From an uncultured Gammaproteobacteria bacterium (GTDB lineage Bacteria > Actinomycetota > Acidimicrobiia > Spongiisociales > SHLN01), in the NCBI GenBank assembly GCA_964195905.1, contig CAXMQV010000128.1, forward strand, positions 459-64,458: 64,000 nucleotides of DNA, read 5' to 3'. The notes under the pieces are model-generated. The model had not been told where the DNA came from. It was given only the letters and a program-made list of their open reading frames with translations, and ran no database searches. The first letter of the stretch is position 1; each line of letters starts with the position of its first letter. A program made the translations under genes and the position numbers. Positions 16,086 through 19,502 of this stretch are shown here, piece after piece.

Positions 16086-16559
16086 CAACCACAAGCATCG
16101 GTCTCTTGGTGCCGGATGCGCCAGGGGCAGGTGGCACCATCCGAAGGGCCGAAGCTACTTTGGTTGAAAAGCCAAAATCGTCCGAGGACCCAAGATCCCA
16201 GACCCCAGACCCCAGACCAGCGGGCCACGGCAACCCCCCGGCAACCCGAAGGCGTTGCCGGGGTCTTGGAACAGTCGGACGCGGAAAACCCCGGTTGAGC
16301 GTCGGCCGAAACCTTCGCCCCTCCGGGGCTTCCGTCCGAAGCGGCCCGAGGGCTGCTCCGATTCCTCTCCGTTTGGCCGAAGCCTCCCGGTGAGGGACCT
16401 CTCTGGTCGGCCGAAACCTTCCTTCGAGGTAGTGGCTTCGCCAGCGTCCGAGTGAGCCCGAAGGCCCTCTTGGCCGTTCCCCTTGCGGGGCGTCCGACGA
16501 AGCCGCTCCTCCGACCCTTGCGAGCCTTCGGAGCGTGTGTTGAGGTTTCCCTCAGCACT
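16086..16559 (-). ncRNA. Candidate long structured 5' leader of the cytidylate-kinase-like operon
   Basis: Lies between the predicted promoter (16566-16594) and the start codon, with no credible ORF. Minus-strand hairpins ggcUUCGgcc (16375-16384), gccUUCGggc (within 16456-16467) and ccccGCAAgggg (16479-16490). Contains a (GTCTGGG)3 array. Confidence 0.3.
16190..16217. repeat. Heptamer tandem array: ccaagat cccagac x3
   Basis: Four in-phase 7-nt units read directly from the sequence. Confidence 0.9.
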
Positions 16560-16565
16560 TGAAAG

Positions 16566-16594
16566 AATCTACAGGGCCGTCATCGTTGCGTCAA
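16566..16594 (-). promoter_or_regulatory. Putative sigma-A-type promoter TTGACG-N17-TAGATT (minus strand)
   Basis: Reverse complement of 16561-16600 reads ctgagtTTGACGcaacgatgacggccctgTAGATTctttc. It sits in an AT-rich island in otherwise GC-rich DNA. Confidence 0.5.
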
Positions 16595-16610
16595 ACTCAG
16601 GGGCTACCTA

Positions 16611-16639
16611 GTTTTCGCGCTCTAGAAGTAGTTTTCGCG
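16611..16639 (-). promoter_or_regulatory. Two direct repeats CGCGAAAAC (minus-strand reading), 20-nt spacing, 16 nt upstream of the -35
   Basis: Plus strand shows GTTTTCGCG at 16611-16619 and 16631-16639. The same motif and spacing occur at 18472-18524. Confidence 0.45.
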
Positions 16640-16703: not shown

Positions 16704-17591
16704 ATGGGCGATTTCTTGAGCGATCCGGAACACCAGTGGCAGGTTCGAATGCTTGCCACGCTAGCGGTCCTGATTGCCACCATCATCGTCCGGCTCTTCG
16801 TCCTGAGGATGGTGCGCCGTCGGGTCGTAGACACCGAGATCTGGTACCGCACCCAGAAGGTAACGAGCTACGCGGGTACATTCATCGTCCTCCTTGTCAC
16901 GAGCTTCGTGTGGCTCCGGGTCAGCAATGTCGGCGCTTGGATCGGCGTGGCGTCTGCCGGTATCGCAATCGCACTGGCCGACGTTCTCCGGAATTTCGTC
17001 GGTCTCAGCTACATCCTGATCCGCCGTCCCTTCAAGATCGGCGATCGGATCGAAATCGACGGCCAAGCAGGCGACGTCGTCGACGTGCGGGCGCAGCGGT
17101 TCTCGCTGCTCGAGATAAAGGGATGGGTCGACGCCGACCAGTCGACCGGCCGCATCATTCAGATCCCGAATGGTCTGCTATTCAGCAAGCCGCTCGCCAA
17201 TTACACCGAAGGCTTCCCCTACATCTGGCACGAGATCCCGATGCTCGTTACCTTTGAGTCCGACTGGAAGCGGGCCGAAGCACTGATGACCGAGGCGCTC
17301 GGCGAGCACGCTCCCAGCATGGCGTCGGAGGAGGCCCGCAAGGCCATCCGGGAGGCGGCCACCGAGTATCGGATCCGCTACACCCATCTCACGCCCACAA
17401 CGTATGTGACTGTCAAAGACAGCGGCGTGATGATCACCGGCCGCGCCATCATTCCGGTCAGGTCGCGCCGCCACGTTGACTCCACCATCTGGCGGTCGCT
17501 GTTAGAGAAGCTCGACGCCGAGCCGAGTGTGGAGCTCGCGTATCCGACGGTACGGACGTATTTGCCGGAGCTGAGGGTCACGCGACAGTAG
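16704..17591 (+). CDS. Mechanosensitive ion channel family protein (MscS-like)
   Basis: 295 aa, three N-terminal TM spans, then ..RRPFKIGDRIEIDGQAGDVVDVRAQRFSLLE..GRIIQIPNGLLFSKPLANYT.., the MscS beta-domain signature. Confidence 0.9.
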   Translation: MGDFLSDPEHQWQVRMLATLAVLIATIIVRLFVLRMVRRRVVDTEIWYRTQKVTSYAGTFIVLLVTSFVWLRVSNVGAWIGVASAGIAIALADVLRNFVGLSYILIRRPFKIGDRIEIDGQAGDVVDVRAQRFSLLEIKGWVDADQSTGRIIQIPNGLLFSKPLANYTEGFPYIWHEIPMLVTFESDWKRAEALMTEALGEHAPSMASEEARKAIREAATEYRIRYTHLTPTTYVTVKDSGVMITGRAIIPVRSRRHVDSTIWRSLLEKLDAEPSVELAYPTVRTYLPELRVTRQ

Positions 17592-17640
17592 GCATCCGGC
17601 ATCCGGCATCCGGCATCCGGCATCCGGCATCCGGCATCCG
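17592..17640. repeat. Heptamer tandem array (GCATCCG)x7
   Basis: Seven perfect units beginning one nt after the mscS stop codon. Confidence 0.95.
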
Positions 17641-18420
17641 GCAAGCATCGTTACCCGGTTACCCGAAGAAGACCACCATCGAGGCGTGTCGCGCTGGGAA
17701 GGGGTTTCTCTGGACCTGGCGCAGGCGGCGCCGGTCGTCCCACGGTCGGCTGTCCTGCGGTAGCAGTCGACTTTTCAGCCAGTGGCGCGCCGGATCCAGG
17801 GCTCGACCGAAAAGTGACAGAGGGCATCGCGCGGAAAATCCCGAGTGAGCCTCGGCCGTGACCAAAACCCTCTCGGGATGTTTCCGCTGCCGGGCGGCTC
17901 CCTTGCGGGTGCCGTGCCGGCGGTTTCCGCCCGAGGTCGGTGCCCGAAGGCCCGTGTCCCTTGCGGCGCCGAAGCGTTTTTGGCGCTTCAGCGTTCCAGC
18001 GTCGCTGGCCCGACGACCTTGCGGTCATCGAGTGCCGGTCCGAAGCCGCGCCCTTGCGGGTCTGGCCCTCGCCGACTCTCATCCTCCGCCGAAGCGGTGA
18101 ACGAGTCGTGGTCTCCCGGCGACTATCTGAGCCTTGTGAGCCCATCCAGCCGGCCCGATCGGGGCCCGGGTGGCCACTCCCCACGATCGCGAATCGTAGG
18201 GCCCGGTCCGGTTTTGACACCTTTCCAGGACTCCGGTCCGGCTTTTAGACCTTCCCAGAGATCCGGTTGGGCTTTCGCCCTTCCAGTCCAGTCGGGCTGT
18301 TACACCCTTCTGGGGTCCGGCCGGGCTTTCGCCCTTCCGGGGTTCTCACAAACCTTTCGATCTGCAAGCCTGCCGTCCACTTTCGCTTCCGGCCGGGTCG
18401 TTCCGGTTGCCCGGGCGACA
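17641..18420 (-). ncRNA. Candidate large structured non-coding RNA (no ORF, own promoter)
   Basis: Downstream of TTGACG-N17-TACATT. At least eight GC-clamped hairpins have UUCG, GCAA or GAAA loops on the minus strand only (17900-09, 17942-51, 17967-76, 18015-26, 18051-60, 18086-97, 18269-80, 18324-35). Confidence 0.3.
18203..18346. repeat. Degenerate ~30-nt tandem repeat, 5 copies (CCGGYCSGG-YTTT..CCTTYCCAG..)
   Basis: Copies at 18203-32, 18233-62, 18263-92, 18293-316 (24 nt) and 18317-46. No unique spacers lie between the copies. Confidence 0.7.
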
Positions 18421-18426
18421 AAGACA

Positions 18427-18455
18427 AATGTACGGGCGAACCTCCGCACCGTCAA
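18427..18455 (-). promoter_or_regulatory. Putative sigma-A-type promoter TTGACG-N17-TACATT (minus strand)
   Basis: Reverse complement of 18421-18460 reads ctcatTTGACGgtgcggaggttcgcccgTACATTtgtctt. Confidence 0.5.
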
Positions 18456-18471
18456 ATGAGATTGGTAGTTA

Positions 18472-18524
18472 GTTTTCGCGCCATAGGAGCATTTTTCGCG
18501 GAAGCGCCGCAGACGGTTTTCGCG
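18472..18524 (-). promoter_or_regulatory. Three direct repeats CGCGAAAA(C/A) (minus-strand reading), 20- and 24-nt spacing, 16 nt upstream of the -35
   Basis: Plus strand shows GTTTTCGCG 18472-80, TTTTTCGCG 18492-500 and GTTTTCGCG 18516-24. Confidence 0.45.
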
Positions 18525-18540
18525 GTTCGCGGAGGGGTTG

Positions 18541-18645
18541 GTTCCCCGTTCCCCGTTGCCAGGTGACAGTTGACCGTTGACCGTTGCCAGGTGACCGGTG
18601 ACAGTTGACCGGTGACAGTTGACCGGTGACAGTTGACCGTTGACC
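18541..18645. repeat. Mosaic heptamer array, 15 in-phase units (GTTCCCC, GTTGCCA, GGTGACA, GTTGACC, GGTGACC)
   Basis: Read directly. All 15 units keep a 7-nt register across 105 nt. Confidence 0.95.
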
Positions 18646-18689
18646 TCCGAATTACATTCGTGTCACTCTCGTCCCGTATAGTGCCGGAT

Positions 18690-19502
18690 ATGGATCGAGT
18701 GTCACCAAGCCGGCTAAGCGACTTCAAGCAGTGCCCCCAGCTGTTCAAGTTCCGATCGATCGATCGACTGCTCGAACCGGCCACAATCTTTCAAGCTCGC
18801 GGCACCACCGCCCACCTGGCTCTTCAGCGCCTTTACGGCCTGGACGCCACCGATCGCACGCCCGAGCGTCTCTACGACCTGTTCCGGGAAGCTTGGGCTG
18901 AGGTCCGCGACGACGAGTATCCGGACATGTTCGAGACCGTCGAGGAGGAGCGCGCCTGGGGTATCGAGAGCATGGAGCTGCTCGCCAACTACTTCGCGGT
19001 GGAGGACCCCCGGGCCATCACCCCGGTGGGGTGCGAGCTCGACTTGCTCGAGGAAGTCAACACCGTGCGGGTGCGCGGGATTCTCGATCGCATCGATGAG
19101 AACGAGAGCGGCGACCTGGTGGTCACCGACTACAAGACCGGCAAGGCTCCACCCGAGCGTTACGCACTCCCCGCCTTCTTCGCACTCAAGATCTACGCCC
19201 TGCTGACCCGCAAGCACCTCGAGCGGACTCCGGTGCAGCTCCGGTTGCTCTACCTGAACGGCCCAACGCTGTACTCCCTCGACGTCGACGAGCAGCAACT
19301 CGACGCCATGGAGCGCCAGGTGCTTGCCCTGTGGGATGCCATTCAGCGGGCCGAGCAGCGCCAGTCCTATCCCCCCCGTCAGTCGAGGCTCTGTGACTGG
19401 TGCTCGTTCCAGGAAATCTGCCCTGCTTTCGGCGGCACCGGCGAGCCGACCGCAGACATGAAGCGTCGGCCCGAGCAGGTGCCCGAGCCGACTCCGGCCT
19501 AG
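18690..19502 (+). CDS. PD-(D/E)XK nuclease, RecB/Cas4-like with Fe-S cysteine cluster
   Basis: MDRVSPSRLSDFKQCPQLFKF.. (N-terminal Cys), ..RGILDRID..LVVTDYKTGK.. (nuclease core), C-terminal CDWCSFQEICPAF (3 Cys). Start trimmed to the ATG at 18690, outside the heptamer array. Confidence 0.8.
   Translation: MDRVSPSRLSDFKQCPQLFKFRSIDRLLEPATIFQARGTTAHLALQRLYGLDATDRTPERLYDLFREAWAEVRDDEYPDMFETVEEERAWGIESMELLANYFAVEDPRAITPVGCELDLLEEVNTVRVRGILDRIDENESGDLVVTDYKTGKAPPERYALPAFFALKIYALLTRKHLERTPVQLRLLYLNGPTLYSLDVDEQQLDAMERQVLALWDAIQRAEQRQSYPPRQSRLCDWCSFQEICPAFGGTGEPTADMKRRPEQVPEPTPA

Follow-up and report, generated by a model that had tools for sequence, protein, structure and literature searches.

Which kind of genetic element occupies the gap between the mscS gene (stop at 17591) and the gene for a Cas4-like nuclease (ATG at 18690) in contig CAXMQV010000128.1, of which we analyzed a stretch of 64,000 nucleotides (nt), henceforth called the window? 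A sequence-only reading of this DNA had drawn attention to positions 17641-18455, where it saw no open reading frame (ORF) but a promoter and a series of stably capped hairpins on the minus strand, and it had taken the tract for a candidate large structured RNA that would run up to a heptamer array at the mscS stop. This finding is real and its interpretation was essentially right, with boundaries that we correct below; what had been missed is that the RNA belongs to a gene family, another copy of which lies at a distance of 1.3 kb, and that the conserved neighbor of the RNA is the nuclease gene and not mscS. On the evidence of its homologues, of covariation and of its folding energy, we predict a structured non-coding RNA of ~590 nt, RNA-1 (17830-18419, minus strand), which represents a long, lineage-specific form of an RNA gene family, not described before, that occurs throughout the Acidimicrobiia. 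We have little doubt that the minus strand of the window from ~18419 to ~17830 is a real structured non-coding RNA gene of this family.

One strand of the gap is crowded with stable tetraloop hairpins

An exhaustive scan for hairpins in which at least three Watson-Crick pairs close a 4-nt loop recovered 25 of them in the tract 17641-18455, including all of the tetraloop hairpins that had been listed previously. Both gggcGAAAgccc hairpins of that list are present, the second of them at 18323-18334 and not, as had been given, at 18324-18335. Hairpins capped by GNRA or UUCG loops numbered 13 on the minus strand and zero on the plus strand, where the tetraloop hairpins of the tract yield a single UCCG loop; the claimed strand asymmetry of the stable loops is thus borne out. 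When the tract was shuffled 1000 times with its dinucleotides preserved, GNRA/UUCG hairpins numbered 0.95 on average (standard deviation 0.96; maximum 6), so that the real density is ~13 times the shuffle expectation. Across the whole window, the mean background per 815 nt amounts to 0.7 such hairpins for the minus and 0.6 for the plus strand. The count away from the tract does not exceed three, and the sole other enriched stretch, with five, is the gap at 16.05-16.7 kb, which is home to the second family member, RNA-2.

Folding of the DNA segment showed the same preference for one strand. The minus strand of 17830-18419 folds with a minimum free energy (MFE) of -319 kcal/mol (z = -8.4), and for the segment 17641-18425 the z-score was -7.6 on the minus strand vs. 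-0.6 on the plus strand. The promoter that had been read on the minus strand (18427-18455; -35 sequence TTGACG at 18455-18450, a 17-nt spacer, -10 sequence TACATT at 18432-18427) is the only sigma-70-like match in positions 17000-19200. As had also been noted, the gap contains no credible ORF; there are only shadow ORFs rich in Arg, Pro, and Gly codons, and none of them has a Pfam match.

Relatives preserve the fold of RNA-1 and not a reading frame

The tract recurs at 72-78% DNA identity in contigs that encode close homologues of the nuclease; these close homologues are found in metagenome-assembled genomes (MAGs) named Acidimicrobiia. It lies directly upstream of the nuclease gene and is divergent from it, regardless of whether mscS or an operon for an extracytoplasmic function (ECF) sigma factor is present on the far side. 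A scan of one genome per species provided 80 more nuclease loci. Searches with nhmmer profiles, rather than with a covariance model of the whole RNA, recovered full-length RNA-1 homologues wherever the nuclease was at least 79% identical, namely in 10 distinct relatives with 70-88% identity. These relatives carry the same non-coding sequence at this position and no protein gene. The -35 sequence TTGAC of the RNA-1 promoter is invariant among them, while the -10 sequence varies (TACATT, TAGCTT, TATGTT, TAAGTT) but always keeps the form TAnnnT; in locus L007, the promoter has been kept despite the insertion of an extra gene between the RNA and the nuclease gene.

We aligned 12 whole RNA-1 sequences representing 10 distinct lineages (alignment A3), for which RNAalifold predicted 130 base pairs. 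In an independent count, 97.6% of the alignment cells held standard pairs. Both sides had changed in 39 of the pairs, as compared with 17.5±2.7 in column shuffles (none of 500 shuffles reached the observed value), and when the pairing partners were slid by one to three columns, only four to 10 double-change pairs remained. Loops that mutate stay within their class: one hairpin is capped by GCAA, GAAA, or GAGA and another one by GCAA, GUAA, GUGA, or GAGA, and the stem under one of the UUCG loops switches from CCGC:GCGG to CUGC:GCAG. By the same comparison, insertions and deletions are nearly all 1-2 nt in length and hardly ever come in multiples of three, and substitutions favor none of the three codon positions. 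A coding gene or pseudogene was rejected because no reading frame, no codon periodicity, and no domain match could be found. Relatives, covariation, and tetraloop density jointly support the previous view of the tract as a predicted folded minus-strand RNA and not a spacer or a decayed gene.

The predicted RNA-1 transcript begins with a GNRA-capped hairpin, CCGG-GCAA-CCGG (18403-18414, minus strand), a feature of the whole family; its loop reads GCAA, GAAA, GAGA, or GGAA in the relatives while the stem is kept. A short conserved region connects this 5' hairpin to an array (18202-18340, minus strand) in which five two-tier hairpin units, each 27-30 nt long, follow one another; the array was delineated with Tandem Repeats Finder and a repeat search. 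Each unit is built from an outer stem of 4-6 bp, an internal loop of purines, and an inner stem of 3-4 bp that is closed by a GAAA or an A-rich loop. The units differ from each other in a compensatory manner (e.g., CCGG:CCGG, CCAG:CUGG, CUGG:CCGG), and the RNA-1 orthologues possess one, two, three, five, or seven of them. The array is followed by a conserved 3' domain of ~320 nt (17885-18201, minus strand), whose helices 7-21 covary and carry UUCG, GCAA, and GAAA caps. The last element is a terminal hairpin module (GGAAAcAUCCCGAGAGGGUU..GGUCACGGCC..GGCUCACUCGGGAUUUUCCGCG; 17826-17887, minus strand), which was detected with a covariance model designated R1. This module probably represents the 3' end or terminator of the RNA, and it is likely to serve as a protein-recognition element as well, a role that we predict.

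Conservation ceases just past UUUUCCGCG in loci L001 and L002, in which most of the segment 17644-17830 is unconserved, and RNA-1 should therefore measure ~590 nt and stop ~190 nt short of the (GGCATCC)x7.6 array that Tandem Repeats Finder located at the mscS stop (17591-17643). The assumption that the RNA extends to this array had to be abandoned. Promoter geometry and the limit of conservation place the predicted 5' end at ~18419 and the predicted 3' end at ~17830-17834. Roughly 100 nt past the terminal hairpin (at ~17700-17745), there is a G+C-rich minus-strand inverted repeat, GGGACGACCGGCGCCGCCTGCGCCAGGTCCAGAGAAACC, that is kept in loci L003/L005 and L008 and is missing from L001/L002; it could be a bidirectional terminator common to mscS, or else a 3' extension of RNA-1.

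At the homologous RNA regions, public gene calls list hypothetical proteins of 73-113 amino acids without Pfam matches. Those of L001 (4631-5178) were called just past the RNA 3' end, and those of L003 (3870-4211 and 4539-4829) overlap the RNA. The ORFs that gene callers have put over regions of this family in published MAGs are probably spurious.

RNA-1 belongs to a gene family with a common promoter and a common terminal hairpin

A profile of the terminal hairpin detected 170 copies in 81 of 86 sources, with several copies at some loci. Nearly each copy is preceded by the same arrangement, consisting of two CGCGAAA boxes 20-21 bp apart, a distance of ~18 nt, a TTGAC-17/18-TAnnnT promoter, and a first hairpin that carries a GNRA loop. 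Searched for in its own right, the paired CGCGAAA box marked 127 promoters in the 86 sources. Once duplicate contigs had been dropped, 122 were retained, and 116 of these have a terminal hairpin within 900 nt. The predicted family RNAs are 138-943 nt long (median 305 nt). Between promoter and terminal hairpin, their bodies evolve fast and are made of short G+C-rich hairpins with cUUCGg, cGCAAg, and GAAA caps. Over 39 kb of family genes, hairpins with stable tetraloops were counted 711 times in the sense and 20 times in the antisense orientation, i.e., 18.1 vs. 0.5 per kb against a window background of ~0.7 per kb. The dominant loops are UUCG, GAGA, GCAA, and GAAA, and cUUCGg and cGCAAg are used 10-11 times as often as expected from dinucleotide frequencies.

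The terminal hairpin itself is a near-invariant element of ~55 nt that is followed by UUUUCyGCG. When 146 distinct copies were aligned, 91.7% of the cells were paired, and 170 cells showed double changes as compared with 54±16 after shuffling. The core of the hairpin, CCCGAG/CUCGGG, hardly varies, and 145 of the 146 copies share one G.U pair, at which the opposite strand would read an A.C mismatch. In the window, covariance model R1 found exactly two significant copies, both on the minus strand, at 17826-17887 (56.6 bits) and at 16276-16337 (65.9 bits); the opposite strand scored 21.9 and 13.6 bits, respectively, at these positions.

The boxes of RNA-1 lie on the minus strand between 18474 and 18524 (18518-18524, 18494-18500, and 18474-18480), and the latter two, 20 nt apart, form its canonical pair. 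The third box is located 24 nt upstream of this pair; an extra, more distant box is also present in L002 and L012. The CGCGAAA motif occurs at four places on the minus strand of the window, two of which are the RNA promoters, and nowhere on the plus strand.

RNA-2, the second family member of the window, is a predicted RNA of ~280 nt (16277-16559, minus strand) whose gene lies between mscS and a cytidylate-kinase-like gene. Its promoter region (16566-16639, minus strand) comprises boxes at 16633-16639 and 16613-16619, a -35 sequence TTGACG at 16594-16589, a 17-nt spacer, and a -10 sequence TAGATT at 16571-16566. Among 15 aligned loci with RNA-2 homologues, 28 of the 61 predicted pairs showed double changes, and the MFE z-score is -4.4. 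RNA-2 is more widely conserved across the Acidimicrobiia than RNA-1; loci L016 and L017 contain three tandem copies of it.

Most loci carry one or two family genes and some carry several. Five tandem short members, each with a paired-box promoter of its own, are present on the minus strand in L043 (1000-2650) and in L052 (1010-2660). Over the terminal ~100 nt that were displayed, four of the five tandem copies of L043 do not differ, and such near-identical tandem copies suggest recent amplification and selection for dosage.

We compared the sequences with Rfam 15, whose 4227 models include those for RNase P, tmRNA, SRP, 6S, group I and group II introns, OLE, ROOL, GOLLD, HEARO, raiA, and 6C. 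There was no match at gathering thresholds in the whole window, which settles the earlier call for a check against known families, nor was there one in 20 related loci. Under permissive settings, the best hit in the RNA-1 tract attained 16 bits (E = 3), where the family's threshold is 42.7, and a search at E ≤ 1 returned nothing around RNA-2 or at one distant locus. ARAGORN found no tRNA or tmRNA genes in the window. Neither the family RNAs nor the CGCGAAAA motif are described in the literature that we searched. The family is new in the sense that the searches made uncovered no counterpart of it in Rfam 15 or in the literature.

The family genes flank a nuclease gene and point away from it

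The Cas4-like protein next to RNA-1 is a PD-(D/E)XK nuclease of family PF12705, and the nearest solved relatives of this stand-alone enzyme are the nuclease domains of AdnA and AdnB. Its gene is flanked by the family genes and is situated beside genes for an AdnAB-type helicase-nuclease; the neighbors in the window encode MscS-like, PD-(D/E)XK, DUF488, UvrD-plus-PD-(D/E)XK helicase-nuclease, and cytidylate-kinase-like proteins. Among the 80 genome loci that were fetched by means of the nuclease, 120 terminal hairpins were scored in 72 loci, and every one of them is directed away from the nuclease gene: 107 lie upstream of this gene on the strand opposite to it, 13 lie downstream on its own strand, and none has the reverse orientation. 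The distance to the nuclease gene is 0.2-2.9 kb (median 0.8 kb). Genes on the far side vary, with mscS, an ECF-sigma operon, or an inserted gene being found there. A replication origin as the cause of the outward orientation was ruled out since the window shows no switch in GC skew.

To sample the family without bias by the protein, metagenomes were scanned with the hairpin pattern alone, which yielded 120 loci. Ten of them extended for 3.5 kb or more on both sides, and eight of these 10 contained an orthologue of the nuclease. The other two, L116 (~8550) and L163 (3780-4030), have another, conserved context in common: genes for a QueG-like Fe-S protein and a luciferase-like monooxygenase are followed by a short family RNA and then by a TetR regulator gene, so that the family module occurs away from the nuclease locus as well. 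The L163 copy has a recognizable promoter-to-hairpin layout in which the first box is degenerate (CGCGAGA).

Several further features of the intergenic DNA were seen. Directly before the ATG of the nuclease gene, a block (AATTACATTCGTGTCACTCTCGTCCCGTATAGTGC; 18655-18692, plus strand) is almost invariant in the relatives. It includes TGTCAC-N10-TATAGT, which resembles the RecA-independent (PafBC-type) DNA-damage promoter of Actinobacteria, and the position of TATAGT, 6 nt before the ATG, suggests a leaderless mRNA. Heptamer repeats recur in the intergenic DNA of this lineage. Thirteen copies of CCGTTGA/CCGGTGA (18553-18645) between the promoters of RNA-1 and the nuclease gene constitute a window-specific insertion that is not found in relatives, ~4-5 copies of GGTCTGG follow RNA-2 (16183-16218), and arrays of GCAGTAG/CGCTGTC are located downstream of the RNA gene in L008.

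What the family RNAs may do

The best overall explanation, and one that we consider probable, is that RNA-1 is the highly structured product of a stand-alone ~590-nt non-coding RNA gene of this family, with a proposed role in trans as a scaffold or sponge. From the sequences we infer that the family RNAs are transcribed, stable, active in trans, and bound by protein. In the mechanism that we envisage, a factor bound at the CGCGAAA boxes would switch on the whole set of RNA genes, and the end hairpins and extra-stable loops would make the transcripts metabolically stable. The RNAs would then work in trans and, as multivalent scaffolds or sponges, bind one or more proteins, with the invariant terminal hairpin as their family-specific recognition site and, in addition, as an end-protection module. 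Their capacity would be set by the expandable hairpin array (one to seven units in RNA-1) and by gene copy number. Taken by itself, this multivalent scaffold or sponge mechanism is offered tentatively and with less than even confidence.

Several points weigh against the explanation that we favor. The ends of RNA-1 and its level of expression are predictions, and both the protein partner and the box-binding factor are postulated. We found no short motif common to the hairpin units of different lineages that could denote a sequence-specific site of binding; GGA occurs at 1.09 times and GGAGG at 0.76 times the dinucleotide expectation. The nested covarying helices in the 3' domain of RNA-1 and in the core of RNA-2 would also suit a defined three-dimensional fold in place of a simple bead-on-string sponge. 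Lastly, the setting of the two well-flanked metagenome loci L116 and L163, with its QueG-like, luciferase-like monooxygenase, and TetR genes, implies that the linkage to the nuclease is strong but not absolute.

The fold just mentioned leads to a different view, in which the family consists of large architectural RNAs with a defined tertiary structure, possibly multimeric or catalytic, like OLE, ROOL, GOLLD, and raiA; UUCG loops would cap helices, GNRA loops would make tertiary contacts, and function would reside in the folded RNA itself. We judge this to be rather unlikely, yet it would account for the size of 450-650 nt, for the high proportion of paired cells, and for 22 helices most of which covary. 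It would also fit the GNRA identity that is kept as loop bases change, the invariance of several joining regions, and the extreme folding z-score together with a usage of cUUCGg and cGCAAg that is typical of rRNA-like architectures. It is harder to reconcile with the picture across the class, where the long members have unalignable bodies and agree in no more than their promoter, 5' hairpin, and terminal hairpin, where hairpin units come and go between one and seven, and where paralogues with different bodies coexist in a genome. Moreover, the candidate long-range closing helix of RNA-1 (RNA positions 2-10 with ~500-508) is compatible in sequence and shows no double changes.

Alternatively, the RNAs might be partners of the adjacent PD-(D/E)XK nuclease and of the AdnAB-type double-strand-break repair locus, as a cofactor, regulator, decoy, or substrate. 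The strict outward transcription of the 120 hairpins at the 80 loci and their short distance to the nuclease gene fit such a partnership, as does the recurrence of the linkage in eight of 10 loci retrieved without the protein while far-side neighbors vary; the sequence conservation of the terminal hairpin suggests recognition by a protein. Adjacency may, however, reflect ancestry or a common regulatory region. RNA-2 lies beyond mscS, L116 and L163 have another context, and the protein resembles an ordinary stand-alone nuclease domain of the AddB/AdnA type. We therefore regard the partnership as unlikely. Slightly more doubtful still is its most specific form, a dedicated ribonucleoprotein system of the Acidimicrobiia in which the family RNAs, co-switched via the CGCGAAA boxes, would bind the PD-(D/E)XK nuclease or another repair factor through the terminal hairpin and thereby steer the processing of double-strand breaks.

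Might the family be the Acidimicrobiia counterpart of the RNA-polymerase-binding regulators 6S and Ms1? Ms1 is a stand-alone RNA of ~300 nt that occurs in most Actinobacteria and is recognized by synteny and not by sequence (PMC9130861). The family resembles Ms1 and 6S in comprising stand-alone actinobacterial RNAs of a few hundred nt whose sequences are poorly conserved and which are located by their genomic context, and its genes possess strong-looking promoters of their own. The synteny of Ms1, however, involves a gene for a HAD-IB hydrolase ('inhibition of morphological differentiation') and an oxidoreductase/Fic gene (PMC9130861), which differs from the RNA-1 locus. Ms1 and 6S form a long rod, in which the 5' half pairs with the 3' half and leaves a central bubble, whereas RNA-1 and RNA-2 fold into many independent hairpins; in their consensus structures, local hairpins follow one another and the 3' hairpin is self-contained. 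There was no match to the Rfam 6S models at E ≤ 10 in the RNA-1 tract or at E ≤ 1 around RNA-2 and at the distant locus. With both synteny and fold unlike those of Ms1 and 6S, we rejected this candidate class and hold such a role to be very improbable.

At about the same low level, and if anything a little below it, we place the idea that transcription as such or the DNA is what matters, be it as an insulator, a terminator array, a supercoiling element, or a repeat of the repetitive extragenic palindromic (REP) type, with the RNA being functionless. Genes that always point away from the nuclease and bodies that evolve fast would be compatible with it, but it is on one strand only that G.U pairs and compensatory changes preserve the pairing, and the tetraloops have been selected on the RNA strand (711 vs. 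20). Furthermore, REP elements are dispersed, whereas this element has no more than two copies in 64 kb. A decayed pseudogene or inert spacer, with hairpins as a mere by-product of high G+C content, is hardly credible, for in spite of long shadow ORFs on both strands and small ORFs called in relatives, there is neither a Pfam match nor codon periodicity, indels are not in triplets, the promoter is conserved, and the structure statistics fall far outside the shuffles.

Significance of the family

Large and highly structured bacterial RNAs without an assigned function are rare, and new classes of them tend to reveal new biology. The present family is unusually tractable due to its recognizable promoter box, its near-invariant terminal hairpin, and its modular, expandable body. 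These features provide three experimental handles: the box can serve as bait for the regulator, the terminal hairpin as bait for the protein, and the number of units as a natural dosage series. The hosts form a class of abundant but poorly studied Actinomycetota from soils, sediments, and marine habitats, and the family is tied to a DNA-repair nuclease locus in them. If such a control of break processing by these RNAs proved true, it would introduce a large structured RNA into bacterial DNA repair, for which no precedent has been described.

Comparison with known systems

A mobile element or a dispersed repeat of the REP or bacterial interspersed mosaic element (BIME) type was rejected, given that both window copies are found at this locus and that phage and plasmid matches are lacking: the hairpin pattern had no match in 2.9 million viral contigs, and RNA-1 had no blastn match in plasmid or phage collections.

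OLE, ROOL, GOLLD, and raiA resemble the family in their length of hundreds of nt, dense covariation, many GNRA loops, and own promoter, and in having no assigned biochemical function. The raiA motif is also present in Acidimicrobiia (PMC10861870). The Rfam models of these four RNAs gave no match here even under permissive conditions, and the family differs from them by its multi-gene nature, by a promoter box and terminal module common to its members, by divergent modular bodies, and by its anchoring to a nuclease gene.

In type III toxin-antitoxin systems, the ToxI antitoxin consists of tandem structured repeats that are transcribed from one promoter. The array of RNA-1 is similar in that tandem structured repeats of ~30 nt are served by a single promoter; in contrast to ToxI, its units are diverged and not identical, and just a quarter of the RNA is accounted for by them. 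A ToxI-like antitoxin was rejected since no co-directional endoribonuclease toxin gene follows downstream, where mscS is the next gene and convergent, and since the downstream genes vary in relatives.

The Csr/Rsm RNAs of the gammaproteobacterial Gac/Csr systems carry repeated hairpins that display GGA in their loops for binding by CsrA/RsmA. We examined sponges of this kind as candidates and rejected a CsrA-type GGA sponge, given the near-expected frequency of GGA and loops of the UUCG/GNRA type; a Shine-Dalgarno-like sponge was rejected because GGAGG is not enriched. The loci that we inspected revealed no csrA gene, although no systematic search for it was made. The family shows no link to CsrA, belongs to a different phylum, has no Rfam match, and possesses an invariant terminal hairpin module that the Csr RNAs lack. 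In their general layout, CsrB, RsmX, RsmY, and RsmZ nevertheless share with it a variable number of hairpins, the existence of paralogues and tandem copies, an upstream activating sequence in front of an ordinary promoter, a terminal hairpin, and a capacity that is set by the number of units. By analogy of design, it is these Csr/Rsm sponge RNAs that come closest among known systems to the RNA family described here.

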